From an uncultured bacterium (lineage in GTDB: Bacteria > Margulisbacteria > WOR-1 > CAVSGV01): a DNA stretch of 32,000 nucleotides. The notes below the pieces were generated by a model. The model worked only from the letters and a program-made list of their open reading frames with translations. It did not search any database and had not been told where the DNA came from. Location: assembly GCA_963699255.1 (NCBI GenBank), contig OY969425.1:540001-572000 (forward strand), written 5' to 3'. The position numbers and the translations under genes were made by a program. Every line of letters begins with the position of its first letter. The first letter of the stretch is position 1. Shown piece by piece: positions 9,537 through 30,014 of this stretch.

Positions 9537-9860
9537 TCAAAATAACATGCTTATTGCTATGACCATTAAATATACAGCGAACGCTCTCCTTAATATAATA
9601 TCCGGAATCGGCTGAACGATCGACGCGCCTATGAACCCGCCGAACAAAAAACCGATCGCCGTGTATAATGCCACATCTATCACTATGTTTCCATTATAAT
9701 AATACTTCAGCGCGGCAAGAAGCCCAACCGGCAGAAGCATAGCTGCAAGCGCCGTTCCCTGCGCCTGATGCTGGCTGAAACTCAGCAAAAAAACGAGAGC
9801 GGGTATGATTATCGTCGCTCCCCCTATGCCGAACGCTCCGGAAAAAGTTCCCGCGATCAA
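9537..9860 (-). CDS. half-size TSUP (TauE/SafE) family membrane permease
   Basis: The 107-aa hydrophobic protein begins (L)IAGTFSGAFGIGGATIIIPALVFL, which is the typical TauE/SafE opening motif. The frame opens directly at the ispD stop codon and the only start is the TTG at 9860. Confidence 0.55.
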   Translation of the reverse strand: MIAGTFSGAFGIGGATIIIPALVFLLSFSQHQAQGTALAAMLLPVGLLAALKYYYNGNIVIDVALYTAIGFLFGGFIGASIVQPIPDIILRRAFAVYLMVIAISMLF

Positions 9861-9890
9861 ACCCGTAACAAGAGAAAGAATGACGTTGAT

Positions 9891-12104: not shown

Positions 12105-13253
12105 TTAATCCAGCACTACCAGTTTTCCGCTTCCGATGACACTGTCACCCGATATTATCTTGTAAATATACATCCCGTTACCGGCGACCTGGCCGCCGAG
12201 CGACCTGCCGTTCCAGTTCACCTGGTTAGTTCCGCCTCTGGCCCCGTTCGTGCCGGAGCCGAACCTCATCCTCTTTGCTTCATGTCCGGTTATGTCGTAT
12301 ATGACTATCGTAACGGCCGCGTCCTTGGACAGCGTGTACTGGATCGTCGTGGCAACGCCTGACATCGGACTGAATGGATTGGGATAATTGTATGTCCCTC
12401 CTACGACCTGCACAGACCCTCCTAACACCCTGGCTTCCATCGTGTCTTCACAGGCATTCGCGCTGATATCCTCCATGTGAAAAGTGAATAGATGTCTCTG
12501 CTGGGAGCCCGGTTGTATGGTGAAGTTGCCATACCATGTCCCGTAAAGAGAGTTCCCTGAAACAAGGCTCAACGGCGGATAGACCGGAATATTGTCAACC
12601 CTCAATAAAACTGAAGCGACACCCGCTCCGACTTCGCTTGATATGATAGCTTCCATGCTCACGTGGGATGATATTATGTCCCCGGACCTGACCCTGACGC
12701 CGTTCACCCATACAGCCACTACTTTCATAATGTCAGAAAAGGCTTCCGGCGTAAAAATAGTTGAAACCTGAAATGAAGGGACCGACCATTCTATCGGCAT
12801 GGGAGGATCGCCGGCCTCGATCGTGTCAGAAAGCTGAGAGTCGCCGTAATGGTCGGACATTACCAGAGAAGGGCCGTTCCATGCCCTTACGTAGAGCCTG
12901 CATTGCTCAGCAAGGGATTGGTCGCCCGCGAAATCCCTGATAAAAGCGCCGTTGCTCAGTCCGCCCTGCCCTACAGGCCCCGCCCAGAGGATAGTATCGC
13001 CGCCTGAGGGTCCGCCATATTTACTTGGAACATGGATAGTCTCTTCTGAAGCGCAAATGATCTGGATAACTTCGCCCGTAGGCAATGCATTGCCGTCCAG
13101 CCCTTGAACGGCCTGATTTGTCCCGTCCATCTGAACGGTGACCGTGACAGCCGACGCAGGAAGGTTGAATCCAAATGACAAAACCCCGATGACAAATAAA
13201 ACCCAAACGACAAATGACAAACCCCTTCCGTCTCTCGCTTGCGCTCGAGACAT
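12105..13253 (-). CDS. S7: secreted protein with the shared N-domain and a T9SS-type/FlgD-Ig-like C-terminal domain
   Basis: The signal peptide (..LSFVVWVLFVIGVLSFGFNLPASA) is followed by the N-domain also found in S2, S3 and S5. The C-terminus reads NYPNPFSP..TIQYTL..VTIVIYDITGHE....WNGRSLGGQVAGNGMYIYKI. The track starts at 13316, but 13254-13316 is read through repeat copy B. I prefer the ATG at 13253 (MSRAQARDGRG..). Confidence 0.8.
   Translation of the reverse strand: MSRAQARDGRGLSFVVWVLFVIGVLSFGFNLPASAVTVTVQMDGTNQAVQGLDGNALPTGEVIQIICASEETIHVPSKYGGPSGGDTILWAGPVGQGGLSNGAFIRDFAGDQSLAEQCRLYVRAWNGPSLVMSDHYGDSQLSDTIEAGDPPMPIEWSVPSFQVSTIFTPEAFSDIMKVVAVWVNGVRVRSGDIISSHVSMEAIISSEVGAGVASVLLRVDNIPVYPPLSLVSGNSLYGTWYGNFTIQPGSQQRHLFTFHMEDISANACEDTMEARVLGGSVQVVGGTYNYPNPFSPMSGVATTIQYTLSKDAAVTIVIYDITGHEAKRMRFGSGTNGARGGTNQVNWNGRSLGGQVAGNGMYIYKIISGDSVIGSGKLVVLD
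12108..12401 (-). other. T9SS type-A-like / FlgD-Ig-like C-terminal domain of S7
   Basis: The last 98 aa match the Por-secretion-tail pattern (N.PNPF.p.T.I.y.l......v.l.IyD..G......  ....WnG....G..v..G.Y.y.i). Confidence 0.6.
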
Positions 13254-13293
13254 CTCCCCCTTACTAAGGGGGAGATACAGAGGGGGTTTTGTC
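13221..13293. repeat. structured intergenic repeat, copy B
   Basis: 67 of its 73 nt are identical to copy A. The central palindrome is TCTCCCCCTT-ACT-AAGGGGGAGA. It lies between the S6 stop and the body of S7, and it supplies the S7 start codon and SD-like GGGGGAG. Confidence 0.65.
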
Positions 13294-13322
13294 GTTTTAT
13301 ATTTAAAATTTGTCATTACCGA

Positions 13323-15773
13323 TTAAGGTTTGGGTCTTGTCCCCCATGAGAAAGGACTTGCCGATTTCCTCTTGTAGAAATATCCCCTGTCAGCGCTCAT
13401 TTGCCATGTGGGAGCAATCCCCGTACTTACATCTATCCAGCTGCCCGACAGAGAAAGGTAGGCTTTGTTGTAGTTGGTGGTCCCCGGTATCAGCTGGTAG
13501 ACCACGTCCGCGCTGAGCAGATCTCCCGATTGAGCCCCGGATTCCAAGAGATTCGAATTGTTCAATAATATAGAAGCTGCCTGTCCGGAGGCTATTAGAT
13601 TCCAGCCGGGAATGATCTGGGTCGATCCGACAAAACCTCCCCCTCCTCCTCCGATCCCGCCCCCGGGCACACTGCCGGTGGAATCATAATTATTGGAATA
13701 TACAATTGACTGGGAATAAGCCCATGCCCGATAATAATATTGCTGTCCTTTAGTAAGGCCTGTATCCGAAAAGCTCTCGGTGCTGTCAATCATGGCGCTT
13801 TGAATATAAATCGGCACTTCATCGACATTAACCGGGACACCCAATGTAGGAAGAGTGCCGGATGCAAAGGGGCATGTCGCTGACGTAAATTCGCTCGTTC
13901 CCGGTTTTCTTAGGATTATCACTCCGCCCAGATTCGAACTCGAGGGATCAAACCAGTTAAGCCTGAGACTGGTATCCGTCGCCGGCATCGCATATAAAAA
14001 GCTGACCGGATCCGGCGGCGAGGTATCATAGCTTGCCTGTGCGCCTGAAGAATATCGCCTTAAGGTTTTATCGGTCCCCGTATTATTGTGAGTAAAGATC
14101 GTGACATAATAACCAAGCAATGGATCAGGGAAAACACTGGTATCAAAAGTGTAAGTCTGATTAGTAGCTCCAGGCGTCAATCCTCTCTCTTCATAGATGG
14201 CACCTCCAACTCCGGTATCTCCGGGAGTTGTGGGATAGCTGCCTAATTTTGCCACGATTATAACTCCATCAAACCATGAGTCCGAGGGGTTAGTCCAATT
14301 GACTTTTACGCCGGCCGAAGTATTTGATCCGAATACATTTGATGCATTGTGAGGAGGGATCCCGGCATCAGCAATGATCGGCGATGCAGCCGCATAGTTC
14401 CTGCCCTGTTCGTTGGGGTAGCCGTCATAAGCGCAGCGGTCATAATTATATACATTGAAAAAATATTCTGATCCGGGTGTGAGGCTGCTCACCACCGTAC
14501 TCCCTATATCACCTGTCGCGACAACAGTTGCGGTATTTACCGTGCCGCCAACACCATAATTATTGCCATTTGAATCCCCTGCTGCGCCCACAGGCGTTAT
14601 CCCTGTCCAGGTGCTTGAGGGGTTCTGCAGGACCATACATCCCGCATAATCCGAGGCGCTCCCTTTATTCCAGTATAGAGTTACCTTGTCATTCTCCGGC
14701 ACATACCCTGTAAAACCGGTTATCGTATCCCAACTGCTGCCATTATAGTGGAACATTCTAGGCTGATTCCCATTAACCGAAATATCGGATACATTTTTAG
14801 CCGAAAAAGATGGAGAAGCGCAAGGCGTGTAATCGTGGGATTTTACCGCAGAGCTCCAGGGAGTAGAAGTTTCATTATGGTCAAGAGTATTATCCACCGC
14901 TTCAACCCTGTAGTAATAGCTCACGGGGTTTCCGGTGGTGTAATCAATAAGATCATCAGGAAATCCCCCCTGAATGCCCGTGCTTAGGCCGTTCGGGTAA
15001 CTTCCTCCGCTGATGGAAAAATCACCGCCCGCAATTAGCGTGCCTGTGCCTGAACCTGTCGTGCTCCTGTATACTTTATACCTGACATTGTTTGAATTAT
15101 AACTGGTGGCAGTGATCCCAAAAGGAGTATAGTCAGTCACTCCTGCCGTTGTCCATGAAACGTTTATCTTATTTCCCGTTTGAGCATCGGTGACTCCTCC
15201 TACACCAGCAAAACCCACCGGCGAATGCGAGGCAGCAATGTTGATCGTTTGATCATTTATCGTGCCGATTCCCAGGCCATTATGGATCACATATACGCCC
15301 GGCCCGGTTGAAAGGCGGCAGGTGTCAGGCTCCCAGCTCAAAAGCGCGGTTCCCGTGGCAGTGGGAGTGATCCTGAAAGTCAGCTGATAAATATCGGTGG
15401 CAGATGAAACATCCCATCCGGTACCACTCGTGGCTACGCCCTTCGCATATTGAACTTTGCCTTCGGAAAAGGTGGCATTGATCGATGAAACATCAAACCA
15501 GCTTGAACTCATATAATCGCCTGATACTATGGGTCGCGTATTTGTTACGTATACAAACTTGTTGAGCTCATAATCCACCCAAGCATCGATCCCCACAATG
15601 TGACGGGCACTGCTTGGAGTATATCGAATATTGATAGGCCTGTCGCTGTTTTGCTCCCAATTGTGCGAAGAGTCCGCCTCATAGAAGCCTATACTATCCG
15701 CCAAAGCGGCAGAGGCCAGCATTACAACGATCAATGGGACCAAAAGCCCAACCTCCTTAAAAAAACTTTTCAT
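13323..15773 (-). CDS. S6: secreted protein with a cohesin-like N-module, FN3-like domains, a Gly-rich linker and CTD-A
   Basis: This intact ORF is 823 aa in the track. I prefer the internal ATG at 15773 (MKSFFKEVGLLVPLIVVMLASAALA), which has GAAGGGGG upstream. It is a paralogue of S4. FN3-like segments include KINVSWTTAGVTDYTPFGITATSY, VTLYWNKGSASDYAGCMVL, VKVNWTNPSDSWFDGVIIVAK and LRLNWFDPSSSNLGGVIILRK. Confidence 0.85.
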   Translation of the reverse strand: MKSFFKEVGLLVPLIVVMLASAALADSIGFYEADSSHNWEQNSDRPINIRYTPSSARHIVGIDAWVDYELNKFVYVTNTRPIVSGDYMSSSWFDVSSINATFSEGKVQYAKGVATSGTGWDVSSATDIYQLTFRITPTATGTALLSWEPDTCRLSTGPGVYVIHNGLGIGTINDQTINIAASHSPVGFAGVGGVTDAQTGNKINVSWTTAGVTDYTPFGITATSYNSNNVRYKVYRSTTGSGTGTLIAGGDFSISGGSYPNGLSTGIQGGFPDDLIDYTTGNPVSYYYRVEAVDNTLDHNETSTPWSSAVKSHDYTPCASPSFSAKNVSDISVNGNQPRMFHYNGSSWDTITGFTGYVPENDKVTLYWNKGSASDYAGCMVLQNPSSTWTGITPVGAAGDSNGNNYGVGGTVNTATVVATGDIGSTVVSSLTPGSEYFFNVYNYDRCAYDGYPNEQGRNYAAASPIIADAGIPPHNASNVFGSNTSAGVKVNWTNPSDSWFDGVIIVAKLGSYPTTPGDTGVGGAIYEERGLTPGATNQTYTFDTSVFPDPLLGYYVTIFTHNNTGTDKTLRRYSSGAQASYDTSPPDPVSFLYAMPATDTSLRLNWFDPSSSNLGGVIILRKPGTSEFTSATCPFASGTLPTLGVPVNVDEVPIYIQSAMIDSTESFSDTGLTKGQQYYYRAWAYSQSIVYSNNYDSTGSVPGGGIGGGGGGFVGSTQIIPGWNLIASGQAASILLNNSNLLESGAQSGDLLSADVVYQLIPGTTNYNKAYLSLSGSWIDVSTGIAPTWQMSADRGYFYKRKSASPFSWGTRPKP
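13326..13625 (-). other. CTD-A, conserved ~100-aa C-terminal domain (S6 copy)
   Basis: The domain reads IPGWNLIASGQ...DVVYQLIPGTTNYNKAYLSLSGSWIDVSTGIAPTWQMSADRGYFYKRK..WGTRPKP and is preceded by PGGGIGGGGGGF. Homologous C-termini occur in S1 (two copies), S2 and S4. Confidence 0.6.
15231..15698 (-). other. cohesin-like module of S6
   Basis: This ~155-aa module follows the signal peptide directly. HIVGIDAWVDYELNKFVYV, GKVQYAKGVATSG and DIYQLTFRITPTATGTALLSWE parallel the cohesin strands seen in clostridial cohesins (I.n.DF.f.YDpnvL.., ..i.f.f.....G, G.fa.i.f.v....G...i.f). This assignment is by eye only. Confidence 0.45.
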
Positions 15774-15802
15774 ATTAAAACCCCCTTCTTTCATTTGAAC
15801 AA

Positions 15803-16885
15803 TTATCTGGGCACAAAACTCTTAGCTCCAGCCTGCCAATTTACCCTCCAGTATGGGAGGTCCCCGCTGGCAGTGATAGATCCATCCCCATCAAGATCTG
15901 AATTGGGGTCAAATCCCGTCTCACCTTGCTTTATTCCTGACTGCCAGGCAGTCTGCCAGAAGGGCAGATCTCCTGAAGATGTAACCTGTCCATCCGCATC
16001 TATATCCCCTGCCCGCAAGCTCATAGTACTGTTGGCTTCTGTAGTCATGGCATCCGGGAAAGGAGCAACCGAATAGGCCGTATAATAGTTGCCTGCTGAA
16101 GGTTCCGAAATGTTCACGGAAGCTGTCCCTCCGCCAAAAGGAACTTTATCATTTGTTATGATCGCAAGATGGTTGGGGCCGATAGTGTTTCCGGCTTTAT
16201 GCTTGATCACCAGATAAAAATCACCCGCCGCATAGATATCCACCGTACCTACTCCGGTAGTATCCAAGCTGATATATTCCGAAGTCACCATATTTCCAGG
16301 GAAAGCGGTTCCGGGATCACTGCCGTTTCGCAGCTCAACTTCTATCGTAGCCGGAACCTGAAGACCGGTGCTTGGATTATAATATCCCTGCAGGTAGGCC
16401 TTTAATGTAAGGGTCGTAGCCGGCGGATTCTCGGTAGTGGTAGTGAATGTCCAAGTATAAGGGCCGGCCAATGGATTTCCGGATATGTTCCGCACTCCGG
16501 TATCGACAGTGCAGGTTATAGTTTCACTGGTAACGAATATTCCGGTCTGGTTAAAGGTAACGGTCCTTGTACTGTCATTATAAGAAGGTTTGGTCGCATG
16601 GACACCGGTTTTATCGCCGGTCACCATAAAGTTTTCGGCTGTTACGGTGCTTCCTAATAAAGAATTATTAAAGGCAGCGGTTATATTCGGGAATAAAAAT
16701 ACTCCCGTGGCATTGCTCTCCGGAGTGGTAGAGGTCACCGCAAGGGCGCCCGTGCTGATATTGACCTCCCGGCTGGAAGAAGAACTGACATTGCCGGCAT
16801 TATCCACGGCATGTACCTCCCAGGTATGAAGACCATCACTTAAGGAGGTTTCCGGTGTTGCCGAGATACTCGAGAGATGATACAT
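15803..16885 (-). CDS. S5, C-terminal fragment (Ig-like, Big_5-type Ig, beta-sandwich, dockerin-like end); no signal peptide of its own
   Basis: The 360-aa ORF is colinear with residues ~640-983 of S3 (HTWEVHAVDNAGNVSSSSS, TPESNATGVFLFPNI, TVTFNQ, CTVDTGV..GNP..PYTW.FTT, YLQGYYN). It overlaps the upstream fragment (16836-18785) in a different frame. Together the two fragments form one frameshifted gene. Confidence 0.75.
   Translation of the reverse strand: MYHLSSISATPETSLSDGLHTWEVHAVDNAGNVSSSSSREVNISTGALAVTSTTPESNATGVFLFPNITAAFNNSLLGSTVTAENFMVTGDKTGVHATKPSYNDSTRTVTFNQTGIFVTSETITCTVDTGVRNISGNPLAGPYTWTFTTTTENPPATTLTLKAYLQGYYNPSTGLQVPATIEVELRNGSDPGTAFPGNMVTSEYISLDTTGVGTVDIYAAGDFYLVIKHKAGNTIGPNHLAIITNDKVPFGGGTASVNISEPSAGNYYTAYSVAPFPDAMTTEANSTMSLRAGDIDADGQVTSSGDLPFWQTAWQSGIKQGETGFDPNSDLDGDGSITASGDLPYWRVNWQAGAKSFVPR
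15806..16012 (-). other. dockerin-like duplicated EF-hand module of S5
   Basis: The module has two parts, DIDADGQVTSSGDLPFWQTAWQSG and DLDGDGSITASGDLPYWRVNWQAG. Each is a Ca-loop (D.D.DG.[IV]) followed by a helix, at the extreme C-terminus. Confidence 0.55.
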
Positions 16886-18785
16886 CTATATTTTTGACAC
16901 TATCGATCCACAACTCATATTTTGCCAGTCCGGAACCAAAATCCGAAGACGCTTCCCAGGAAAAAGTGGGGGTTTGAATACTTAACCATGATCCTGATTC
17001 CGGGCTTATTAGATAAACACTTGCCGGCGGCGTCATATCCACTCCAAAGTCCATCGCGGACTCATCGTTATCGCCAAAACTGACCCAGTCACCTGTATTA
17101 TCGGCAGAATCCATTACCCTGGCCTGCCAGTGATACGCTCCTTCACCCATGTTCTCAAGAGTTATTAAGCCCGTCACAGGTGTTCCGGAATATGGAACTC
17201 CTTCGCCCGTGGCTGTGACAGTGCCATTGAAATCCGTTCCTACCGGTTCTATTTCCACTTCAGGATATAACGTCGTCCCGCTTAGGGGTGAACTCATGCT
17301 CATACTGATCTCTACCGTAGACTCGGTCATCCATTCTCCGGTGGCGATCGCAGTTATACCGTCCGATCTGAATTGACCAAGCCCTGCGGGAAGGTTCGGA
17401 GCAACGATGCCGAAAGCTTCGGTAGTAAAGGAAGCGACACTGCTGTATTCGCTGGTACCGTTCACGTTCACCGCAGCGACCTTCCAGTAGTATTCCGTGG
17501 TCGCACTAAGACTGGTGAATGTCCAGGCCGCTTCATCCGTGGTAGCCACTGTATCCGCCGCAGAGTCCTGCGTACCGTAACTTATCACAAAATATCCCGT
17601 GTAGCTTCCCGTATCCCATGTGCCGTACGCGGAGTCGGTGGTTATGTTCGTTGTGACCAGGCCCTCCGGAGTCCCCGGCAGAGCATCGGAATCCGCAGAT
17701 GAAACGTATGTCGTTAAAATATTGTCGCCGTTATATGCATATATATAGTAGAAGTGCGCCTGGTCAGCTACCAGATTGGCATCCACCGTAGTGGCCGCCG
17801 TACCTGTATAGATAAGCGCCCCGCCCAATGCTTCGGGGGTACCCTCGTACACCTCGAATCCGGACTGAGCACCGCCCGATTCCCACGAAATGACACAATC
17901 ATAACCGGCGCCATTCACTCCCAAGACAGATGGATTGATCGGAGCATTAGCCAGGGTATATTTTGGTTCCGCCGTCGCATATCCGCTGTAGCCCGCTTCA
18001 TTATATGCCCTCACCCTGACCCAGTACGCTTCATTTGTGGATAATCCATAGATAGTATATAAATCGTCGCCGGCTTCAGCCGTTCCCGTAAATATGGTCA
18101 CCCATGGATCGGTCGCGGACACCTCGATACTGAACCCTTTCTCATTAATTGAATTGACCTGCCATGTAAAACTCTCGGATGTGTCGCTGAGAGCTTCCAG
18201 TGTGGCATCGCTTGGATCCGCAGGAACGGAAACGGTCACGAATTCCGAGGAAGCAAAAAATGTCGGGACCGACCAGCTCTGGGGCATTGGCGGCGCGCCC
18301 GCGTCAAGGCTGGCAGAAAGATGGGAGTCGCCGTAATAGGTGGATGATTCGATGCTGGGGCCGTTCCACGCTCTTATGTAGATATGGCTGTCATCGAGCA
18401 GGGATTGGCCGCCCACGAATTCCTTGATAAAAGCGCCGGGCCCCATGATATAAGGGGGATCGCCCAGTTCGCCCTGTCCCACAACTCCGGTCCAGATCAA
18501 GGAATCTCCGCCCGTTGCTTCTCCTGTCGTGCCGGGCGCATGGATGGCTTCATTTGACGCGTAAATGACCTGGATGACCTCTCCGGTAGGCATCTTTGCG
18601 CCGTCATGGTCATATATGATCTGGTTCGTCCCGTCCATCATGACGGTGACCGAAACAGCCTCCGCCTGCCGCGGGATGGCAAATGACCAGATACCAACGA
18701 CAAAACAGATCCCGATGATAAATTTCCAGACCGGAAATTTGATCCCGGATATCATTTTATTGCCTGATGATCTCAGATCAGCCAT
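16836..18785 (-). CDS. S5, N-terminal fragment (signal peptide, shared N-domain, FN3-like domains, Ig-like)
   Basis: The 649-aa ORF has the RBS AGGAG 7 nt upstream of its ATG. It is colinear with residues 1-~630 of S3, and the N-domain is about four fifths identical by eye. It ends ..LAKYELWIDSVKNIDV and then runs into out-of-frame sequence. Confidence 0.8.
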   Translation of the reverse strand: MADLRSSGNKMISGIKFPVWKFIIGICFVVGIWSFAIPRQAEAVSVTVMMDGTNQIIYDHDGAKMPTGEVIQVIYASNEAIHAPGTTGEATGGDSLIWTGVVGQGELGDPPYIMGPGAFIKEFVGGQSLLDDSHIYIRAWNGPSIESSTYYGDSHLSASLDAGAPPMPQSWSVPTFFASSEFVTVSVPADPSDATLEALSDTSESFTWQVNSINEKGFSIEVSATDPWVTIFTGTAEAGDDLYTIYGLSTNEAYWVRVRAYNEAGYSGYATAEPKYTLANAPINPSVLGVNGAGYDCVISWESGGAQSGFEVYEGTPEALGGALIYTGTAATTVDANLVADQAHFYYIYAYNGDNILTTYVSSADSDALPGTPEGLVTTNITTDSAYGTWDTGSYTGYFVISYGTQDSAADTVATTDEAAWTFTSLSATTEYYWKVAAVNVNGTSEYSSVASFTTEAFGIVAPNLPAGLGQFRSDGITAIATGEWMTESTVEISMSMSSPLSGTTLYPEVEIEPVGTDFNGTVTATGEGVPYSGTPVTGLITLENMGEGAYHWQARVMDSADNTGDWVSFGDNDESAMDFGVDMTPPASVYLISPESGSWLSIQTPTFSWEASSDFGSGLAKYELWIDSVKNIDVSSLEYLGNTGNLLK

Positions 18786-18815
18786 TATTAACTCCTGATA
18801 ATGACAATTATTATG

Positions 18816-20966
18816 CTACCTCGCTTCCCAGGTGAAAGGATAATTCGTGTTCCTCATCAGGAAATATCCCGCATCCGGGGTCATTTCCCATGTGGCCACC
18901 CCGCCGGTATCCTGATCGAACCATTGATTAGAAACAACGACGGTGGCCAACTTGTAATTGTTCGTTCCGGGAATGATCCTGTATATCTTGTCCCCTGATG
19001 CGGCTCCCTGCAGTATCAGAGTTGACTGGTCAAGTGTCTTTGATATTTGCTGGCCTGTGGATATCATGTTCCACCCGGGAACGATCGTTGTGGGACCCGC
19101 AAAGAGCACTCCTCCGATCCCGCCTCCAGGTAAGGCGGCGGTGGAATCGTACGCGGACGGATAATTATACGCGTCATCATTGGACCAGATACGGTAGTAA
19201 TAGGTCTCCGATGAAGACAGCCCGGTATCCTGGAAGTACTCCAGAGGACCTGAATAGATCACGACTTCCTGGGAAATCCCGGAACCTCCGACGGGGGGAG
19301 TAAATGTGGTATAGGGGTTACCCGTCAGCGGAAAATCCGATGGATTGTAAACAAATTCGCTTGTGCCGATCTTTCTTAAGATGACCACACCCAGAAAATC
19401 CGAGTCGGTCGGGTTGGTCCAATTCAGATCAACGCTCGTGCTGCTGCTTGGCAGGGCGTAGAAATACTTCACCGGAGCCGGCGCTGTTGTATCATAGCCT
19501 GCCTGCACGCCAGAAGAATACCGCCTGTGGTTAATATCCGCCGCCTTATTATATGTATATACAGTAACGTGATAATCGTTAGCAACATCGTCCAGAGGGT
19601 TCGGGCAGGCCACATTATCAAAAGTATAGGTCGTAGGATCTGTGGCAGAAGATTCATGGAACGCATATACATCTCCCGGGTTTGATGAATAGCCGTGTTT
19701 TTTTACAGCTATCCTAACTCCGTCAAAGTAGCTCTCGCCGGGGTTAGTCCAGGTGACGGTAATGCCGTTCGTATTCTTGAACGAGGTCACGGATGGCACG
19801 TTGGAAGGAGAGACGCCGGGTGTCGCAACAATAGTTAATGTAGAACTGTAGTTCCTGCCCTGCTGGCCTATCCCCGCGGAACCATCGTAGTCCTCAGCCA
19901 GGTCATAAGCCGTTATATTATAATAATATGGGACGCCGTTCTGAAGGTCAGTCGATCCATCTTTCAGCTTGGTCCTTACGAGCTGAGCTACGCTTTCCTT
20001 CGAGACCACTTTCCCATTGTTAAAAGAATACCCGTCCGGATAGTCCGTACCATTGTTATCTCCTGACGCAGATTGGAATGTGAACGGGGTCCACGGATCG
20101 GTATCGCTGCCGATGACCAGATACCCTGCCAAGTCGCTCGCGGAGGAAGGATCCCATTTCAGCGTTACCTGCTTATCACCCGGAACGTATCCCGTAAAAG
20201 AGCTTGTCGGCCCCTGCCATGTAGTTCCGTTATCGGTGGTCCAGTACATTGCCGGGGCTCCTCCCTGGAGCGACGAGGTCGGCGCGTCCGGAGCGACATA
20301 GTCGTGGGATTTCACAGTAACGGCCTGGGAATTGTTGTCTTCATTAGGAGTGACACAGTTATCAAGGGCATGCAGCATATATGTGTAGGTATAATTATGC
20401 GGCGGGCAGCAATCGTACGGCTCATTGCCTTCATATTGCCCGTTGGAATTGCCGTCATCATAGTTCGTCGCTCCCGGAGAAGATGTTTCCAGGGTTGTAT
20501 AACTGCTTTCATCGTTGTTCCTCTTGCGAAGGACTTTGAACCTTAAATTGTGCGGATCATAGGTCGTTGCAGTAATGCCATATGGGGTGACATCCGTTGC
20601 CTGGGTATTGTCCCATGTTACCTGCAGCATATTGCCGGTATCAGGATTAGGAGGCGTGACCGGATTGCTTTTTGAGTTTATCCCTACATTGGAACCCCAG
20701 GTCGGAGGAGCACTTTGTGTAATGGTTATAGTTCTGGCCGGCGTTGATCCCGTAACATCTACTCCCGCTCCGGGGGTTCTTAAAAGTTTAATGCCTGCGG
20801 TATACCAATTGAAAGAGTCGTTGGACCCGAGCTGAGCCGTAGGCGATACCAGAAATTGCAGATCATACAGGGAAACAGTTCCTGTACCGGTCGTCCAATA
20901 CTTGGCTTGCGTAGTATCCCTTGTGTATATAATGTGGCACGGAGGAGTAGTATCTGCGGATAAATT
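18816..20966 (-). CDS. S4, C-terminal fragment (rest of the cohesin-like module, FN3-like domains, CTD-A)
   Basis: The track lists 18816-20630 (604 aa, from the first ATG). The frame is open up to 20966, and the extra 112 codons (..TGTGTVSLYDLQFLVSPTAQLGSNDSFNWYTAGIKL..) align with the cohesin-like region of S6. It is a paralogue of S6. Confidence 0.75.
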   Translation of the reverse strand, partial: NLSADTTPPCHIIYTRDTTQAKYWTTGTGTVSLYDLQFLVSPTAQLGSNDSFNWYTAGIKLLRTPGAGVDVTGSTPARTITITQSAPPTWGSNVGINSKSNPVTPPNPDTGNMLQVTWDNTQATDVTPYGITATTYDPHNLRFKVLRKRNNDESSYTTLETSSPGATNYDDGNSNGQYEGNEPYDCCPPHNYTYTYMLHALDNCVTPNEDNNSQAVTVKSHDYVAPDAPTSSLQGGAPAMYWTTDNGTTWQGPTSSFTGYVPGDKQVTLKWDPSSASDLAGYLVIGSDTDPWTPFTFQSASGDNNGTDYPDGYSFNNGKVVSKESVAQLVRTKLKDGSTDLQNGVPYYYNITAYDLAEDYDGSAGIGQQGRNYSSTLTIVATPGVSPSNVPSVTSFKNTNGITVTWTNPGESYFDGVRIAVKKHGYSSNPGDVYAFHESSATDPTTYTFDNVACPNPLDDVANDYHVTVYTYNKAADINHRRYSSGVQAGYDTTAPAPVKYFYALPSSSTSVDLNWTNPTDSDFLGVVILRKIGTSEFVYNPSDFPLTGNPYTTFTPPVGGSGISQEVVIYSGPLEYFQDTGLSSSETYYYRIWSNDDAYNYPSAYDSTAALPGGGIGGVLFAGPTTIVPGWNMISTGQQISKTLDQSTLILQGAASGDKIYRIIPGTNNYKLATVVVSNQWFDQDTGGVATWEMTPDAGYFLMRNTNYPFTWEAR
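18819..19094 (-). other. CTD-A (S4 copy)
   Basis: The domain reads VPGWNMISTGQ...KIYRIIPGTNNYKLATVVVSNQWFDQDTGGVATWEMTPDAGYFLMRN..FTWEAR and is preceded by PGGGIGG. Confidence 0.55.
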
Positions 20967-21250
20967 CTATCAACGCCTTCCAGAACGGTCGTCGGTATTT
21001 CATTTGACATGGTGGGCACGCCAAGGTTAGCGAAACCATCATAATTATTATATTGCAGATGGGCGTCGAAACCCAGGATCTGATAGCTTGTGCCGGTGAC
21101 ATAGTTTATCCTTAGCGGGCGATAGCTGTTCTGCTCCCAGGTATAATTTGAAGAATCGATGGACACATCCGCATACGCGAAACCCGCAGCGCCGAATAAG
21201 AACACAAGCAGGACTCCGATCACCTTCCATTTTTTCATTTTATTCTTCAT
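20780..21250 (-). CDS. S4, N-terminal fragment (signal peptide and first part of the cohesin-like module)
   Basis: I prefer the ATG at 21250 (MKNKMKKWKVIGVLLVFLFGAAGFAYA), which has GGAGGAG upstream. The track start at 21283 overlaps the end of S3. Homology to S6 (NYTWEQNSYRPLRINY..ILGFDAHLQYN) holds to about 20967. After that this frame reads non-homologous sequence until its stop at 20780. Confidence 0.65.
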   Translation of the reverse strand: MKNKMKKWKVIGVLLVFLFGAAGFAYADVSIDSSNYTWEQNSYRPLRINYVTGTSYQILGFDAHLQYNNYDGFANLGVPTMSNEIPTTVLEGVDRIYPQILLLRATLYTQGILRKPSIGRPVQELFPCMICNFWYRLRLSSGPTTLSIGIPQALNF

Positions 21251-21266
21251 TCTTAACTCCTCCTTT

Positions 21267-24218
21267 TTATGGGACTGGGGCATAACTGTTCACCCCGTTA
21301 TTACTAAGCCAGATGCCGAAATCATCGATGCGGATCAGGCCGTCGCCGTTAAAATCCGCTCTCGGGTCGAATCCGGACTCACCGGCATTCAAGCCGTTCG
21401 CTGCCAGCCAGATGCCGAAATCGTCGATGCGGATATATGGGTCGCCATTCGCGTTCCCGCCGCGCATGCTGAGCTTTCCGTCCGTTTCCGTCCACTCCGC
21501 GCTTGGTGACGCGGTCGGAGTATATGCCGGATCGGTCCCGTCAGCCAGGTCCACAATGACCGGCCCGGACCCAAAGTTCTTTGTGCTGTTGGTTATTACG
21601 GACAGGTGGTTCGACTCGAAAGAAATGCCCGCATGTTGAACTTCAACATAGAAGCTCCCTGCCGGGACATTTATATCCGCGGTGCCGGTGCCTGTCGCAT
21701 CCAGGATGATCTCCTGAGAACCTGCGATGGTGTGAGCGGTGCCTGGATCACTGCCCTGCCGCAGCTGCACTTCTACGGTCGCCGGGGACTCCTGCGTGCC
21801 GCTGATCGCATTATAATATCCCTGCAAGTATACTTTAACGGTAACGTTGGTGGCGGGCGGGACCTCGGATGTCGTCGTAAATGACCAGGTATAAGGATAG
21901 GCCATTGGATTTCCGGCTTTATCCTGCACTCCGGTATCCACAGTGCAGGTCACGGTCTCACTTGTGGCGAATTCCCCCGCCTGATTGAACGTTACGGTCT
22001 GGGTACTGTCATTATAAGAAAGGTTCGTCGTTTCATGGGAACCGGATTTACTCCCCGTTACCTCAAAGTATTCAAATGTGACAGTGCTTTCTGTTAAGCC
22101 TTTGTTAAATGTCGCCATGATATTCGGGAACAGGAACACGCCGGTGGCATTGCTCTCCGGAGTGACCAAACTCACCGCAAGAGGAACAGTATCTATATTG
22201 ACCTCCCAGCTGGAAGAAGAACTGACATTGCCTGCAAGATCCACGGCATTAACCTCCCAGGTGTGAACGCCGCTACTTAAGGGAGCTACCGGTTCAGCTG
22301 AAGTCATCGTGGACGGGACAACTTCATTAGTGACGCCGTCTATCCACAGCTCATATTTCGCCAGGCCGGACGGCGCATCATTAGCGCCGATCCATTCAAA
22401 AGTAGGCGTTTGTGTGTTCATCCAGGTACCCGGAAGAGGGCTTTGCAGGATCGGTAAAGTAGGCGGAGTCATATCCACGCCAACATCCATAGAGGATTCA
22501 GCGTTTCCGCCAAAGCTCTCCCAGCTGCCCGTATGACCGGCGGCATCTCTTACCCTTACCTGCCAGTGATATGGCCATTCAGCTAAGTTCTCAAGAGTTA
22601 TTATGCCGGTCACAGGTGAGACGGAATAAGGGACCCCTTCGCCGGTGGCTGTGACCCTGCCGTTAAAATCCGTCCCTACCGGTTCTATTTCCACCTCAGG
22701 AGATAAAATAGAAGCGATAGGAGAAGTCATGCTCATACTGATCTCCACTGTAGACTCGTTTATCCATTCTCCGGTAGCGATCGCGGTTATCCCGTCCGAT
22801 CTGAATTGATCAAGCTCTGCGGGAAGGTTCGGAACAGGAGGCGACAAAGCTTCGGTAGTAAAGGAGGCGACACTGCTGAATTCGCTGGTACCGTTAATAT
22901 TCACGGCCGCGACTTTCCAGAAGTATTCCGTGGCCGGATTAAGCATTGTAAATGTATAAGCCGCTTCGTCCGTGGTGACCAACGCGTCCGTGACAGATTC
23001 CTGCGTCCCGTAACGTATGACATAAGATCCCGCGCCGCTCACCGCCTCCCATGTGCCGTAAGCGTCATCGGTCGTGATATTCGAGATGACCAGGCCTTCC
23101 GGGGTCCCGGGCAGGGCATCGGAATCCGCGGATGAAACATACGTCGTTAAAACATTGTCCCCGTTATAGGCATATATAAAGTAAACATTATTGGCATCGG
23201 GATCGGCATCAACGGTCGTTATCGCTGTCCCCGTATAGATCGGTGTCGCTCCCGGACTGTTCGCGGGATAATTGCGGTATACCTCGAATCCTGTCTGAGC
23301 TCCGCCGGATTCCCAGGAAATAACACAACTATAACCAGGAACATTCACACCCAGGACAGATGGAGGATTTACAGGAGCATTCGCCAGGGTATATCTCGAT
23401 TCAGCGGTCGCCGGATCGCTATAGCCGGATATATTATATGCGCTGACCCTGAACCAGTACGCCTCGTCTGTGGCTAATCCATCGGCCTCATATGAAGTGA
23501 CATTGGCATCAACCGTGGCCGTAACTATATCCGTCCAGGTTTCAGATGTGGACATCTCGATCCTGAAGCCCTGCTCGTTATTTGAATTATCCTGCCAGGT
23601 AAGCTCCATGGAAGCGGTGCCCAGTACTTCCAGCGTGGCATTGCTTGGAGCTAAAGGAGCATAAAGAGCCGCTAATTCTGTTGAAGCATAAAAAGTCGGG
23701 ACAGACCAAAATTGTGGCATCGGCGGCACGCCCGCATCAAGTGTTGTGGAAAGCTGGGAATTGCCGTAATAGGTGGATGATTCGACACTGGGGCCGTTCC
23801 ATGCCCTCACATAAATTCGGCTATAATCGATCAGCGACTGTCCGCCGGCGAATGCTTTTGTAAAAGCGCCGGGCCCCATGACAAAAGGTGGATCGCCAAG
23901 TCCGCCCTGCCCCACAACTCCCGTCCAGATCAAGGAATCTCCGCCTGTGGCTTCGCCGGTCGGGCCGGGCGCATGTATAGCTTCATCTGACGCGTAAATG
24001 ATCTGGATGACTTCTCCCGTAGGCATCTTGGCGCCGTTATGGTCATATATGATCTGGCTGGTCCCGTCCATTTGAACGTTGACCGTGACCGCAGATGCCG
24101 GAAGCATGGATCCAGATGACAGGATCCATGATACGAACAGAATCCCAATAGCCAGCTTCCAGACCGTGGATCCGTATCTGGCGATCATTTTATGATATGG
24201 CAACCATAGATCTGCCAA
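21267..24218 (-). CDS. S3: secreted protein with the shared N-domain, FN3-like domains, Ig-like and Big_5-type Ig domains, a beta-sandwich and a dockerin-like C-terminus
   Basis: This intact 983-aa ORF uses a TTG start with AAGGAG 6 nt upstream. The start is homologous to the ATG start of S5 (MADL..). The signal peptide is ..LAIGILFVSWILSSGSMLPASA. The Big_5/SbsA-type segment is TPESNATGVFLFPNIMATFNKGLTESTV..VTFNQ..CTVDTGVQDKAGNPM. Confidence 0.88.
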   Translation of the reverse strand: MADLWLPYHKMIARYGSTVWKLAIGILFVSWILSSGSMLPASAVTVNVQMDGTSQIIYDHNGAKMPTGEVIQIIYASDEAIHAPGPTGEATGGDSLIWTGVVGQGGLGDPPFVMGPGAFTKAFAGGQSLIDYSRIYVRAWNGPSVESSTYYGNSQLSTTLDAGVPPMPQFWSVPTFYASTELAALYAPLAPSNATLEVLGTASMELTWQDNSNNEQGFRIEMSTSETWTDIVTATVDANVTSYEADGLATDEAYWFRVSAYNISGYSDPATAESRYTLANAPVNPPSVLGVNVPGYSCVISWESGGAQTGFEVYRNYPANSPGATPIYTGTAITTVDADPDANNVYFIYAYNGDNVLTTYVSSADSDALPGTPEGLVISNITTDDAYGTWEAVSGAGSYVIRYGTQESVTDALVTTDEAAYTFTMLNPATEYFWKVAAVNINGTSEFSSVASFTTEALSPPVPNLPAELDQFRSDGITAIATGEWINESTVEISMSMTSPIASILSPEVEIEPVGTDFNGRVTATGEGVPYSVSPVTGIITLENLAEWPYHWQVRVRDAAGHTGSWESFGGNAESSMDVGVDMTPPTLPILQSPLPGTWMNTQTPTFEWIGANDAPSGLAKYELWIDGVTNEVVPSTMTSAEPVAPLSSGVHTWEVNAVDLAGNVSSSSSWEVNIDTVPLAVSLVTPESNATGVFLFPNIMATFNKGLTESTVTFEYFEVTGSKSGSHETTNLSYNDSTQTVTFNQAGEFATSETVTCTVDTGVQDKAGNPMAYPYTWSFTTTSEVPPATNVTVKVYLQGYYNAISGTQESPATVEVQLRQGSDPGTAHTIAGSQEIILDATGTGTADINVPAGSFYVEVQHAGISFESNHLSVITNSTKNFGSGPVIVDLADGTDPAYTPTASPSAEWTETDGKLSMRGGNANGDPYIRIDDFGIWLAANGLNAGESGFDPRADFNGDGLIRIDDFGIWLSNNGVNSYAPVP
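21270..21461 (-). other. dockerin-like duplicated EF-hand module of S3
   Basis: The module has two parts 33 codons apart, GNANGDPYIRIDDFGIWLAANG and ADFNGDGLIRIDDFGIWLSNNG. The IRIDDFGIWL parts are encoded by a 27-bp direct repeat with 26 of 27 positions identical. Confidence 0.6.
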
Positions 24219-24296
24219 AATTAGCTCCTTGTTATATTATACTACTTCAATGAACCTCTTACCATTGTTATATTACATCGCTTCCCTTGTTATCAT

Positions 24297-25862
24297 TTAA
24301 GGTTTAGGCCTTACCCCCCACATCAACGAACTCGGCTTTCTTCTCATATAGAAATATCCTTTGTCAGGCTCTATCCCCCAGGTTGGCGCAGACCCCGTAT
24401 TTGGATCGATCCAGACGCCAGATAAAGACAGGTATGCTTCTTTAAAATTTGTTGTTCCCGGTTCGTACTGGTAGATCACGTCCGCCGTACCCGCGTCCCC
24501 CGTCGCGGCCCCTGATTCAAAAAGATTTGAATTATCCAGCGCCATCGGCTCCGCCTGCCCGGCGGCGATCAAGCTGAACCCGGATTCCATTGTCGACGGC
24601 CCCGTAAATCCTCCCGCCATTCCGAACTGCAAATCCGTGATGTTGGATATTGCCGACCAGTTGGGCGTTGTATCCTTTGACTTTACCGCAAAGGATCTGA
24701 TCCCGGCCGGCAGCCCCGCGATCGTAACTTCCTGTGTTAAACCCCAGTGCAGCGGCGTCGGCGTCGAGTAAGAAGGGTCTACGGATGTCGCCAGATACCA
24801 GTCCACGAACCCTTCAAGCGTCGATGACAGGATCGGCTCCGGGCTGTACCTTATATCATACCCCGTAACAGTGGCCGGCGCGCCCAGTCTATCCGTGTCG
24901 TACGGCGCTGTCCATTCCAGCGTCACCGTGTATGATCCCGCGCTCCCTCCCGAATCCTTTATCCTGAGGTCCGTTATCGTCTGCGGCGGCGTAAGATCAG
25001 GCTTGCGCTGCGTATGGAATGGTACAGCTGCGCTCCAGCCGCTTGGTCCAAATGAATTTACCGCCTGTACCCTTACCGAATAATCCGTATCGTCGGACAG
25101 CCCTGACATATCTATCGACTTCAAGTCCGTCGAGTTCGGTGATGGATACCGCTGAGCATTATTATATAGAGGAGGGGACGTCGATACCGGTCCGCTCCCT
25201 GATTCCCAGCTTATCTCATAGTATCTCGCTCCAAATGACGCGTCAAATGTTGCCGTAGCTGTGTTATATAATATTGACCCTACTCCCAAATTCGTCGGCG
25301 TGTCCGGCGCGGTCTTTGAGAACATCACCTGAAAGGTTGGAAGACTTACCTCGCTGGGTGCTGAAGGTGGAGAGCCTGGCATCGCCGTAAATATCTGTGA
25401 CTCCCCGAACTTTGCATCGCCTAAGCCAGGGTCTTTGTTCCACGCGCGCACATAAAAGGAATTCACGTTCGTTGTTATCGTCGAGAGGTCGGTATAGAAC
25501 TCCCCGGCCATATTAGAAAATCCGTGGTGCTTATTGTCATCTCCAACAGTATATGATTTGACCAGACTCTCTCCTGCGCCAGTATCAACATTCCCGTTGC
25601 TCAGCGGCCCTACTATGAAGTTGCCAGACGCGTTAATATACTGCACCGGACTCCCTACCGCCAGTGGCGCACCGGTATCATCTTCCACCGTTCCGAACGT
25701 GGTAAAATTCAATGGAGGCCCGGAATACGCCGGCAGATCCGGCACGCAGCCCGCAAGCACCGAATAAACCGTGCAATACGCCCCGCTCACGCCACCTCCC
25801 ATTATCATGATCAGCATAAAGATCAATATCTTAAGCTTCCTTTTCATTTTATTTTTTCCCAT
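24297..25862 (-). CDS. S2: secreted or lipid-anchored protein with a diverged shared N-domain, two FN3-like domains and CTD-A
   Basis: The 521-aa ORF has the RBS GAGGAGGAG. The signal peptide is KLKILIFMLIMIMGGGVSGAYC, and the Cys suggests a possible lipobox. N-domain motifs are FYVRAWN and SLPTFQV. FN3-like segments are ATATFDASFGARYYEISW..YSVRVQAVNSFGPSGWS and YTVTLEWTAPYD. Confidence 0.85.
   Translation of the reverse strand: MGKNKMKRKLKILIFMLIMIMGGGVSGAYCTVYSVLAGCVPDLPAYSGPPLNFTTFGTVEDDTGAPLAVGSPVQYINASGNFIVGPLSNGNVDTGAGESLVKSYTVGDDNKHHGFSNMAGEFYTDLSTITTNVNSFYVRAWNKDPGLGDAKFGESQIFTAMPGSPPSAPSEVSLPTFQVMFSKTAPDTPTNLGVGSILYNTATATFDASFGARYYEISWESGSGPVSTSPPLYNNAQRYPSPNSTDLKSIDMSGLSDDTDYSVRVQAVNSFGPSGWSAAVPFHTQRKPDLTPPQTITDLRIKDSGGSAGSYTVTLEWTAPYDTDRLGAPATVTGYDIRYSPEPILSSTLEGFVDWYLATSVDPSYSTPTPLHWGLTQEVTIAGLPAGIRSFAVKSKDTTPNWSAISNITDLQFGMAGGFTGPSTMESGFSLIAAGQAEPMALDNSNLFESGAATGDAGTADVIYQYEPGTTNFKEAYLSLSGVWIDPNTGSAPTWGIEPDKGYFYMRRKPSSLMWGVRPKP
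24300..24599 (-). other. CTD-A (S2 copy)
   Basis: The domain reads SGFSLIAAGQ...DVIYQYEPGTTNFKEAYLSLSGVWIDPNTGSAPTWGIEPDKGYFYMRR..WGVRPKP. It is very similar to the S6 copy. Confidence 0.6.
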
Positions 25863-25878
25863 CTCTTCTCCTCCTCAG

Positions 25879-25908
25879 GTGTGAAGTATATTTAATATTA
25901 CTTCACAC
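25879..25908. promoter_or_regulatory. perfect 10-bp inverted repeat between S1 and S2
   Basis: GTGTGAAGTA-N10-TACTTCACAC is located 14 nt after the S1 stop and ends about 5 nt before the S2 RBS. No U-tract follows it. Confidence 0.35.
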
Positions 25909-25921
25909 TAAACAATTACAT

Positions 25922-28900
25922 TCAGGGTTTCGGGTAATCCCAGGTCACATTTCCCGAACTGTTCTTTATGACCCAGTATCCTTTTCCGGCCTCAAATGAA
26001 GGCACAGATCCTGTCCATGTTGCTCCGTTATATGTCTCCACATTCCACCCGTTATTGTAGCCCCAGACCACGTCGGAAGAGGTTACATAATCCCCCAAAT
26101 GCGTCTGTGCCATGGTTTGCGTGGAATTAAATGCCGTTCCTACCAGATTGAAACCCGGATTGATACTCTGGCCCTCCAGAGTTATATAGCGATCCGTTTG
26201 TGATAAATTACCGGTCACCTCTAATGTGACCGCATTGCCCAAAAGTATCCAGTAGCCTTTATCCGCCTCGATCGAAGGTACAGATCCTGTCCATGTTGTT
26301 CCGTTGTATGTCTCTACATCCCACCCGCCAGCCGGCGAATAGGAATATACTGTGGCTGTCTGTCCGGCCAGTTGATTTCCTATCACACTGTTTATGGAAG
26401 TATCCTGCGGGATCACCGGCAGTGAGATCAAATTCCAACTCGCGACCAGAGGTATCTTTGCCCCCGGCGGCGTTATCGTGAGACTGAACTGCTTGTCATA
26501 TACCGCCGCCTGGCTGTCCGTCACCTCCACAGTGAACGTCCTGGTCTCAAATGTAGCGGGCGTTCCGTGCAGCAAGCCGTTTGTTTCCAGCGTTATTAAC
26601 TGAGGCGGGCTCCCGCCTTTCAATGACCACGTATACGGTGTTTCTCCGCCCGTCGCGGCGAACTGCAGGCTATATGCGGAACCCTGCATGCCGTCAGGCA
26701 GAGGTGACGCGGTCGTGATGAGCAGCGGATTTATCGCCGCTGCAGTATATCCCGTGTAATGGTATCCCATGTCAACGGTATTTGAATCCCCGTGTATGCC
26801 GTCCGGATTGGTGCCGTACCCTTCTTTTGAACTAAGGCCGAGCATATGGGCATCGCCGCTTCCTCTATCTATGCACTCCGACGTAATGAGCAGATGCACA
26901 TCTCCCGCCGGCCCGTTCACGAACAGCGGCTCCGAGCTGATGTTGCCGGTACCAGGATATACAGTGTCCCTCTGTACGCAGGAGTAGGTCACCGTCGGCG
27001 TTGAGCTGGTGCTTGCGATGTTCAGCGGCGAATTCCCGTATACGATGGTGTTCGTAATGACCGGCGATGAGGAGTTATAGTTGAATATCCCGCCGCCCGT
27101 GCTCGCCGTGTTCGCCGTGAAAGTGCAGTTCTTCACCTCCGGCGATGACGTAAAGTTGAACATGCCGCCGCCGAAGTTCGGTGTGGTGTTACCTGTGAAC
27201 TTGCAGTTCGTTACCACCGGATCCGCGGAGAAATAATTCAGGATGCCGCCGCCCTGTTTCGCGCTGTTCGATGTGAACACGCAGTTATTTATGGTCGCGG
27301 AGGTCTGGACGTTGCATATGCCGCCGCCGTAATTATTGTTCGCGCTGTTAGACTCAAAGGTGCAGTACTTGATGACCGGCGAAGAGGATATGTAGTTGCA
27401 AATACCGCCGCCGTAATTATTGACCGCGATGTTCAGAGAGAACGCGCAGTTCGATACCGTCATTGATGAGTGGTCGCCATAGATGCCGCCGCCGGATATG
27501 TTGGCGCGGTTCGACGAGAACACGCAGTTGTTTATGAGAGGATTGGAATTATTGAGAAGATACATCCCGCCGCCGTAGCCGCTCCCCCCGGACGCGTATC
27601 CGTTAGTTATCGTGAAGTTCTCGATCGTTGTGGCCGAGGTCAGCGTTGAGCCGCTCATGCAGCGCACGGCGCCCTCTCCGGATATTATCGTGGTAGTGCG
27701 GTCTACTGTCGGGCTCCAGCCGCCATCATAACCGCCGTGCAAATACACTCCCGGCTTGAGTATTATCGAAGCGGCCAATCTGTATGTCCCCTGCTGTACT
27801 CGTATCTCATCTCCGCTCTCCGCTGAGATTTCCGCTGAGTTTATAGTCTTGAAAGGATGCGGCTGGGACCCGTCCTGGAAACCGGAAGCGGAATCGCTTA
27901 CATACCAGACGCCGAGGGTGGATAATGTCTCCGCTGAAACCACACCGCTTGCATCGGTGGTTATCTGATCGCCGTTATATGCTCTCACTATGTACCAGTA
28001 TGTGGTGCTCAGCGGCAGGCCGGTATCGGTGTATTCCGTAGTTGTCACATTGTCTTCCCATGTGGCGATATATGTCCATGGCCCCGCCGCCTGGCTGGCC
28101 CTTTCTACAGCATACCTCGTTCCGTCGCCGCTCCAGAACAGCCTTATAGTTGCGCCGGTCACTTTCACGACCGCCAGGCTCTCCGGTGTATCAGCCAGGG
28201 TGAATACAGAGAAGTCCAGTGACGGCACCATATTCCCTCCGCCGTTATACGCCACGACATGGCGGGTATACTGCGTGTTGGCAAGCAGGCCGACCTCTGT
28301 TGTGCCCAGATCCCCGGCCGTCGCGGACCCGACCACATTATCAGAGGTGTCCTGCAAATAATATCCGTCAGCATCTGTCACATCGTTCCATGACCATATT
28401 ATAGAGCTCGTCGATTCTGCCGTGCCGGTGAGGACGGAAGGCGTCAGAGGATGCGTTTCAAACGATACTATTTCGCTATACTCTCCGTAGCCGCTCGAAT
28501 TTCCGGCTGAGACCTGCCAGTAGTATGTAGTGGCTGGAATAAGGTCCGTCCAGGTATATGATGTCTCCGTTGTCGTTATTGTTCCCAGGTTGGCCGCCGC
28601 CTGGTCCGTACCATAGCTTATCGTAAATGAATGAGCATCACTCTCCCACGTCCCGTAGGCGTCATTGGTCGTGATATTCGAGGTAAACAATCCCTCGGGG
28701 CTTGCCGGCGGCGTTAACCCCAATGATGAAATAGATGCGGGGGTTAATACATTATCACCATTATAGGCGTATATATAATATGTATAGGTGGTATCGGGGA
28801 TCAGGCCGCCGTCCACAGTTGAGGTGCCGGTCCCGTCATAGACCAAACTGCCAACGCCCTCGATCCCATCGCGGTATACCCTGTAGCCGGACTGTGCTCC

Positions 28901-30013: not shown

Positions 30014-30014
30014 G

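Follow-up and report, generated by a model that had tools for sequence, protein, structure and literature searches.

The described systems that come closest to the locus reported here are the cohesin-dockerin pair, the type-A C-terminal domain (CTD) of the type IX secretion system (T9SS; TIGR04183 / PF18962), the SLH and CWB2 repeats, and the floc_PepA family (NF033554). We compared with them two unannotated domains from a 32,000-nucleotide stretch of DNA of an uncultured Margulisbacteria bacterium (contig OY969425.1, positions 540,001 to 572,000; the whole stretch is termed the window, and coordinates are counted from its first letter). The first, which we name P, is an all-beta domain of about 95 amino acids (aa) that ends four proteins (S1, S2, S4 and S6), and was called CTD-A in a preliminary description of this DNA. 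The second, which we name N, covers about 130 aa at the mature N-terminus of S2, S3, S5 and S7. P is a real, rare and unannotated family, and we tentatively propose, from gene order, fusions and domain architecture, that it may be a non-covalent docking module for N, tethering its passengers to surface-sorted partners.

In the cohesin-dockerin system, a small terminal module on varied passengers binds a partner on an anchor-bearing protein, as is proposed here for P and N, and both systems have adaptors with the two types of module (here S2), internal duplication and clustered genes. They differ in that P and N have no sequence similarity to cohesin or dockerin and P has no fold match in the PDB; P, moreover, is a beta domain that occurs as a pair, whereas a dockerin is a 60-aa calcium-binding helix pair. 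The hosts of P and N are diderm, uncultivated lineages, and the binding of the two is putative. A dockerin or cohesin identity was rejected for both domains, as neither has a Pfam match and searches of the PDB returned nothing.

The T9SS type-A CTD is, like P, an all-beta domain of about 90-100 aa that forms the very C-terminal end of Sec-exported proteins whose passengers vary, and in the window the CTD and P are each found on paralogues with a common N-terminal domain. P differs from it in being found in tandem, without cargo or sometimes at the N-terminus, and in having its own end motif, W-x-Y-P-K-P-Y. With SLH and CWB2, P has in common tandem repeats that form one compact pseudo-symmetric terminal unit, non-covalent surface retention (proposed for P), and the presence of SLH proteins encoded nearby in four related P loci. 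There is, however, no homology, P having two beta lobes in place of three helical or alpha/beta repeats, and the genomic evidence for P points to a protein partner.

Finally, floc_PepA resembles the N-proteins of PVC-type lineages, which consist of about 200 aa with a signal peptide, one domain and PEP-CTERM, although no P-type partner has been described for PepA. The floc_PepA hidden Markov model (HMM) scores 39.9 and 26.5 bits on two PVC-type N-proteins, against a cut-off of 80 bits, and has no match on the other N-proteins or on the N domains of the window. We therefore do not count N as a PepA member, the scores being below the cut-off and coming largely from the PEP-CTERM tail, and treat the likeness as a lead only. 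Overexpression of PepA in Aquincola increases cell-bound and decreases soluble exopolysaccharide (PMC9850573).

All five window copies of P lie on the minus strand. Single copies end S6 (13326..13625; independent E-value (i-E) 4e-30 with a family HMM built from 279 domains), S4 (18825..19097; i-E 1e-24) and S2 (24300..24599; i-E 4e-30), and S1 ends in a tandem pair made of a first lobe, S1a (26228..26458; i-E 8e-10), and a second lobe, S1b (25925..26170; i-E 1e-14). The HMM identified no further copy in the window. Its envelopes agree with the boundaries in the preliminary description, whose claim that five copies of one domain end four minus-strand proteins is borne out by BLASTP, hhalign and the family HMM. 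By BLASTP, the terminal 100 aa or so are 58% identical between S6 and S2 (E 6e-41), 45% between S6 and S4 (E 1e-27) and 41% between S2 and S4 (E 2e-22), and S1a and S1b are 43% identical to one another (E 3e-15). Identity between the S1 copies and the other three is 25-28%, with 26% across 90 aligned residues for S1b and the S4 domain (BLASTP E 3e-4). An hhalign comparison of seven A-type sequences with the two S1 copies gave a probability of 91% (E 1e-6), confirming, together with the HMM values, that the S1 copies are distant relatives of the others, as had been suggested.

Glycine-rich linkers precede the domain in S6 (PGGGIGGGGGG) and S4 (PGGGIGG), and the endings RPKP (S6), RPKP (S2) and YPKP (S1) were likewise correctly recorded at the outset. 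The window tails read WGTRPKP, TWEAR (S4) and WDYPKP (S1). The S4 orthologues P0003 and P0007 also end in TWEAR, indicating that the absence of PKP characterises the subfamily and does not result from truncation. We scored the copies with separate HMMs for the two lobes of the pair. The copy-2 model exceeded the copy-1 model in S6 (80 and 47 bits), S2 (77 and 56 bits) and S4 (63 and 40 bits), and S1b (51 versus 26 bits) and S1a (22 versus 58 bits) were each assigned to their own lobe. By these profile scores the single copies in S6, S2 and S4 correspond to the second lobe of a pair, making the tandem pair, in the form it has in S1, the ancestral unit and the lone CTD-A a derived state. An AlphaFold2 model of the single P domain of S6 has seven strands (pLDDT 86.6, pTM 0.78), and that of the S1 pair (pLDDT 83.4, pTM 0.79) indicates one compact two-lobed unit.

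For N, the window contains four copies, all on the minus strand, at the mature N-termini of S2 (25326..25730; N HMM i-E 7e-39), S3 (23688..24092; i-E 1e-51), S5 (18255..18659; i-E 2e-52) and S7 (12765..13151; i-E 9e-48). BLASTP relates these regions to one another with E-values of 1e-49 (S3/S7), 6e-9 (S2/S5) and 2e-5 (S2/S7). N is joined in the window to three alternative C-termini: P in S2, a natural fusion of the two domains; a weak dockerin-like repeat in S3 and S5b, the continuation of S5; and a T9SS type-A CTD in S7. The S7 C-terminus (12105-12400) is a T9SS type-A / FlgD-Ig CTD that scores 33.2 bits with TIGR04183, above the cut-off of 23. The C-termini of S5b (15803-16100) and S3 (21267-21560) carry two EF-hand-like repeats, DIDADGQVTSSGDLPFW ... 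DLDGDGSITASGDLPYW, that are dockerin-like; Dockerin_1 reaches 16.8 bits on S5b, short of its 22.9-bit cut-off, and has no match on S3. No cohesin was seen in the window.

Outside the window, N accompanies P in distant lineages. We fetched every locus through P alone and compared 12 independent readable loci, in 10 of which the gene next downstream of the P gene encodes N (in L009 it is the second gene). P followed by N was found in the window and in L001, L010, L007, L008, L009, L015/16, L002-5, L006, L012/13 and L014, with a gene order of P-N-P-N in L012/13 and an operon-like spacing of the P and N genes. Among 1,497 six-frame open reading frames (ORFs), the N HMM matched only 20, those of the P-N loci, and N stood at the mature N-terminus in every case. 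The two-gene unit is kept in a Lentisphaerae-type lineage, in Margulisiibacteriota, in Saganbacteria and in the window genome.

The N-proteins of these loci end in different tails. In four independent PVC-type loci, a stand-alone pair gene is followed by the gene for a protein of about 200 aa with a signal peptide, N and PEP-CTERM, and one lineage with such PEP-CTERM N-proteins was identified as Lentisphaerae. These small proteins align with the N domain of the window over 99 columns, with an hhalign probability of 97.3% (E 1.8e-11). In the Margulisiibacteriota, Saganbacteria and related loci, the P-pair gene is followed by a gene for N with a T9SS-type CTD, and then by one for an SLH protein. 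TIGR04183 is above its cut-off on the N-proteins of L015 (37.2 bits) and L007 (34.2 bits), as on S7. Above-cut-off T9SS type-A CTDs are present at the Candidatus Margulisiibacteriota and Saganbacteria loci L007, L008, L009 and L015, where the CTD genes are followed by genes for proteins with Glucodextran_B and SLH. To our knowledge, T9SS is not known in Margulisiibacteriota or Saganbacteria. L001, a related metagenome contig, encodes just downstream of its S2-like/S7-like gene pair a protein of 1,955 aa (2135-8002) that has YadA-head repeats and ends in a Peptidase_S74 intramolecular-chaperone domain.

We additionally identified two independent fusions of P and N. The first is the N...P arrangement of S2 and of its orthologue P0005. 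The second, P0053 (L019, residues 830-860), runs passenger-P-P-GGGG-N in frame and with no stop codon, and its P end motif, TWNLPKP-I-SGGGG, is internal. As this motif is followed by a linker and N, a free C-terminus is not required in P0053.

Conserved adjacency across distant lineages, combined with independent fusions, is classic evidence of joint function and often of binding. We favour a docking of P on N because of the conserved adjacency, the two fusions, the division of tails between the two types of protein and the similarity of the two lobes of P (below), and rate this reading as possible, with somewhat less than an even chance. From these observations we infer both a physical binding of P to N and a tethering to the surface. 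P, at the very end of a Sec-exported protein, would dock on the N domain of the protein encoded next door. The N-proteins bear surface-sorting tails, namely PEP-CTERM in the PVC-type loci, the T9SS/FlgD-Ig CTD in Margulisiibacteriota, Saganbacteria and S7, and the weak dockerin-like repeat in S3 and S5, and docking on them would tether the passengers of P-proteins, which have no known tails of their own, to a sorted partner. S2, which bears the two domains at opposite ends, could serve as an adaptor or chain extender, and stand-alone pairs, with their two similar lobes, could cross-link two N-proteins.

Several points weigh against a docking of P on N. Genes of one pathway, or genes regulated together, could lie side by side although their products never touch. 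The same loci served for the iterative construction of the N HMM, which the independent hhalign comparison offsets only in part, and a possible kinship among the Margulisiibacteriota and Saganbacteria loci may make these less than fully independent observations. Two loci have no N neighbour: L017, where the downstream 368-aa protein gave no significant match to N (E 0.4), and L018, a short contig of the N-proximal subtype. Docking also leaves unexplained how a P-protein, once bound, would get across the outer membrane. A mirror-tree argument from the window paralogues was dropped, the data being unable to discriminate between the alternatives.

The docking proposal also has a bolder form. P and N would form a previously unrecognised, phylum-spanning "piggy-back" display system in which P-proteins, lacking an export tag themselves, bind N in the periplasm and are carried out and retained by way of the T9SS-type CTD or PEP-CTERM of the partner, and bivalent stand-alone pairs cross-link N-proteins into a matrix; we consider this extended version improbable as it stands. 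If it were true, diderm and mostly uncultivated bacteria would possess, in P and N, a new analogue of cohesin-dockerin that is not homologous to it. If docking of P on N holds in its simpler form, it would explain how large surface proteins with no known sorting tail are retained, it would represent a modular docking system outside the Firmicutes cellulosome, and it would provide two new HMMs with which to annotate the surface proteomes of uncultivated phyla.

We investigated the distribution of P at large by an exhaustive HMM search, in which only 203 of 1.84 billion cluster representatives scored as relatives at E<=1e-3. It was this search alone that revealed the family, since word-indexed protein searches missed nearly all of it, with four matches for the A-type alignment, none for the S1 copies and 30 for a 20-pair profile; a scan of GTDB genomes with the A-type profile found nothing, and one with a 6-pair profile found three loci. 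The identified lineages are Lentisphaerae, Candidatus Saganbacteria and Margulisiibacteriota, and the source-named relatives are all labelled "hypothetical" or carry an evidently uninformative label. All five window copies match the family HMM, whose motifs are G[WF]NL[IV]S, AD.[IV]Y, KW.D and G.G[YF]W.

Domain architecture was mapped on 176 of the 203 relatives. In 78 of these the tandem pair is at the C-terminus of a larger protein, and in 71 no more than 70 residues precede the pair; the full-length members of this second group (about 250 aa) consist of a signal peptide and the pair, without cargo, and some of the 71 are contig fragments. A single copy preceded by no more than 70 residues was found in seven contig fragments, an N-proximal single copy in one fragment, and an internal location in four relatives. 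Five relatives have a single C-terminal copy, four of them window-type (P0005, P0006, P0007 and P0011) and one (P0131) called a pair under the first profile. In the remaining ten, the pair comes right after the signal peptide and is followed by TSP3/LamG or subtilase; P0077, P0103, P0112, P0118, P0149 and P0096, for example, continue with TSP3 repeats and LamG, or with a subtilase and Big_7. Sec-type leaders are present in 101 of the 143 members with intact N-termini.

The end of the domain lies within 20 aa of the end of the protein in 161 of the 176 relatives. The C-terminal placement seen at first in the window is therefore the rule in the family, with the ten N-terminal pairs, and P0053, internal before another domain, standing apart from it. 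The tails of family members converge to the consensus F-T-W-x-Y-P-[KR]-P-Y, which closes the protein or nearly so, and the PKP of the window is this end motif without its final Tyr. The combination of pair and terminal motif is full in S1 and partial in S2 and S6, which have single second lobes and RPKP, and the motif is missing in S4. A divergent pair in L017 (the P0059 subtype) ends in W-V-M-A-x-N-x-C-x-W-x-H, and its gene adjoins one for a protein with Pfam S-layer (PF07752), NosD and beta-helix domains.

A module so placed could be a secretion or sorting signal, read by an outer-membrane translocon and perhaps cleaved, in the manner of the T9SS CTD. The strongly conserved end motif would fit such a signal, as would the flexible glycine linker before P, the diverse passengers with Sec signal peptides, and the finding of both P and a T9SS-type CTD, in different proteins, behind one N-terminal domain. 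We nevertheless consider it the least probable of the explanations weighed here. The full-length members among the 71 relatives with short leaders have no cargo to be sorted, although some of the 71 are fragments; the pair is N-terminal in ten relatives and internal in P0053, with a linker after the motif; and the S4 subfamily is entirely without the terminal motif. No conserved translocon or peptidase gene adjoins the P genes, whose conserved neighbour is N. Of the anchoring or sorting role first put forward for P, an anchoring module in a broad sense survives, and the sorting signal has become the weaker reading, because P can be cargo-less, N-terminal or internal and is coupled to an N that itself comes with sorting tails.

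P also shows no relationship to the T9SS CTDs, as had been stated from the first: hhalign gave a probability of 0.2% against the local S7-type T9SS/FlgD-Ig CTDs. Membership of the TIGR04183, PF18962 or PF13860-like families was accordingly rejected, with no HMM match, no remote homology and no shared fold. Sortase, exosortase and archaeosortase-type signals (LPXTG, PEP-CTERM) were rejected for P as well, since a hydrophobic 15-mer in the last 35 aa was found in none of the 176 members, in agreement with the early statement that the domain has neither a hydrophobic helix nor a basic tail.

The two lobes of the pair are more alike within a protein (median identity 46%, up to 79%) than equivalent lobes are between proteins (32%), which fits both lobes tracking one lineage-specific ligand. 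P0021, P0032, P0038, P0081 and others have near-identical central segments in both lobes, with up to 79% identity, and lobe-specific features are kept across proteins, with VIGxQLTGG in lobe 1, and SGLxxSGATAG and the PKPY end in lobe 2. This pattern in the sequences suggests partial gene conversion or concerted evolution between the two lobes.

The ligand in question need not be a protein. P could be a direct envelope or matrix anchor on a non-protein polymer, such as lipopolysaccharide, exopolysaccharide or a secondary cell-wall polymer, with the N-proteins as fellow members of the surface layer. P is terminal, usually at the C-terminus and occasionally at the N-terminus, like known binding modules; tandem pseudo-symmetric repeats, which it possesses, are typical of wall-binding modules; stand-alone copies exist; and the conserved Trp, Tyr, Asp and Asn of P sit in loops. 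In four Margulisiibacteriota-type loci, in addition, SLH proteins are encoded two genes downstream. A polymer anchor leaves unexplained, however, the gene-by-gene pairing of P to N across lineages and the two fusions. The homogenisation of the lobes is somewhat more easily reconciled with a protein partner that evolves fast, although glycans specific to each lineage could also account for it, and P resembles no known fold or family that binds carbohydrate or the cell wall. We regard a polymer anchor as unlikely, though as the most probable alternative to the docking of P on N.

The passengers of P are varied, including FN3, beta-helix, TIG, CBM11 and beta-propeller domains, consistent with the initial observation that the domain recurs on otherwise different proteins. 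This raises another alternative, in which P is an outward-facing ligand-binding module, such as a lectin, carbohydrate-binding module (CBM) or adhesin, for an external substrate or another cell, and its terminal place is incidental. Its co-occurrence with CBM11, TIG, beta-propeller and LamG/TSP3 passengers is compatible with such a function, as are the stand-alone secreted copies and the label of its sole structural neighbour. This neighbour of the P pair, BFVD A0A8D9C8P8 (Foldseek E 2.9e-4, TMq 0.50, 16% identity), is an uncharacterised "putative hemin binding protein" from an uncultured marine phage contig; a tblastn search of GenBank phages with the P pair returned nothing. A strict terminal place, an end motif and coupling to N would be unexpected for a generic CBM, and no CBM or lectin family or fold was matched by P in Pfam, NCBIfam or Foldseek searches, so that we think a ligand-binding module distinctly unlikely.

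That P could not be assigned to a named family holds across the resources searched, namely Pfam, NCBIfam, PDB sequences and PDB folds. Pfam and NCBIfam returned no family for P whether the query was the isolated CTDs, the complete window proteins or ten distant relatives, and the P domains of the window had no hit at E<=10 (Pfam) or E<=0.1 (NCBIfam). N likewise has no counterpart in Pfam or NCBIfam. Sequence profiles of the PDB matched neither P nor N, and Foldseek searches of the PDB with the P models gave no match at E<=0.001, with best TM-scores of 0.2-0.4. The coupling of P to N similarly has no match among curated families, and the literature searches made, among them on a "PKPY" end and on Margulisbacteria with T9SS, found nothing relevant. 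In kind, P is a terminal surface-display module.

The window genes for these proteins form a minus-strand array for large secreted proteins between 12.1 and 30.0 kb. From the ORF coordinates and the domain map, the array (12105..30013) reads S1 (P-P), S2 (N..P), S3 (N), S3b/S4 (..P), S5/S5b (N), S6 (..P) and S7 (N), with tight intergenic gaps of -17 to +79 bp. The ORFs, all on the minus strand, are S1 (25922-30013), S2 (24297-25862), S3 (21267-24218), S3b (20780-21283), S4 (18816-20630, with the frame open up to 20966), S5 (16836-18785), S5b (15803-16885), S6 (13323-15794) and S7 (12105-13316). The two-gene unit is tandemly duplicated within 13323-24218: S3 and S5 share 67% identity over 639 aa, S3 and S5b share 53% (BLASTP), and the identity between S4 and S6 is 38% across 636 aa.

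Several window genes are interrupted by frame breaks. S3b and S4 together correspond to the intact 803-aa orthologue P0007, with a break near 20960, and S5 continues past its break in S5b, the two together corresponding to the intact paralogue S3, which BLASTP aligns to S5 and then to S5b. As the contig is one single 1.77-Mb piece, the breaks may equally well be assembly indel errors or mark true pseudogenes. S1 lacks a signal peptide and is preceded by two overlapping beta-helix ORFs, S0 and Sm1 (30013-31893), and so is probably the tail of a longer protein.

On the other side of the array, the ORFs at 510-1049 and 1172-2386 gave no family match. The first part of the window (1-12030) is otherwise composed of housekeeping genes, including pgk, gap, rodA/ftsW, anthranilate synthase I, ispD, an M24 peptidase, aroQ and an LptA/OstA-like gene, the last of which implies an outer membrane.

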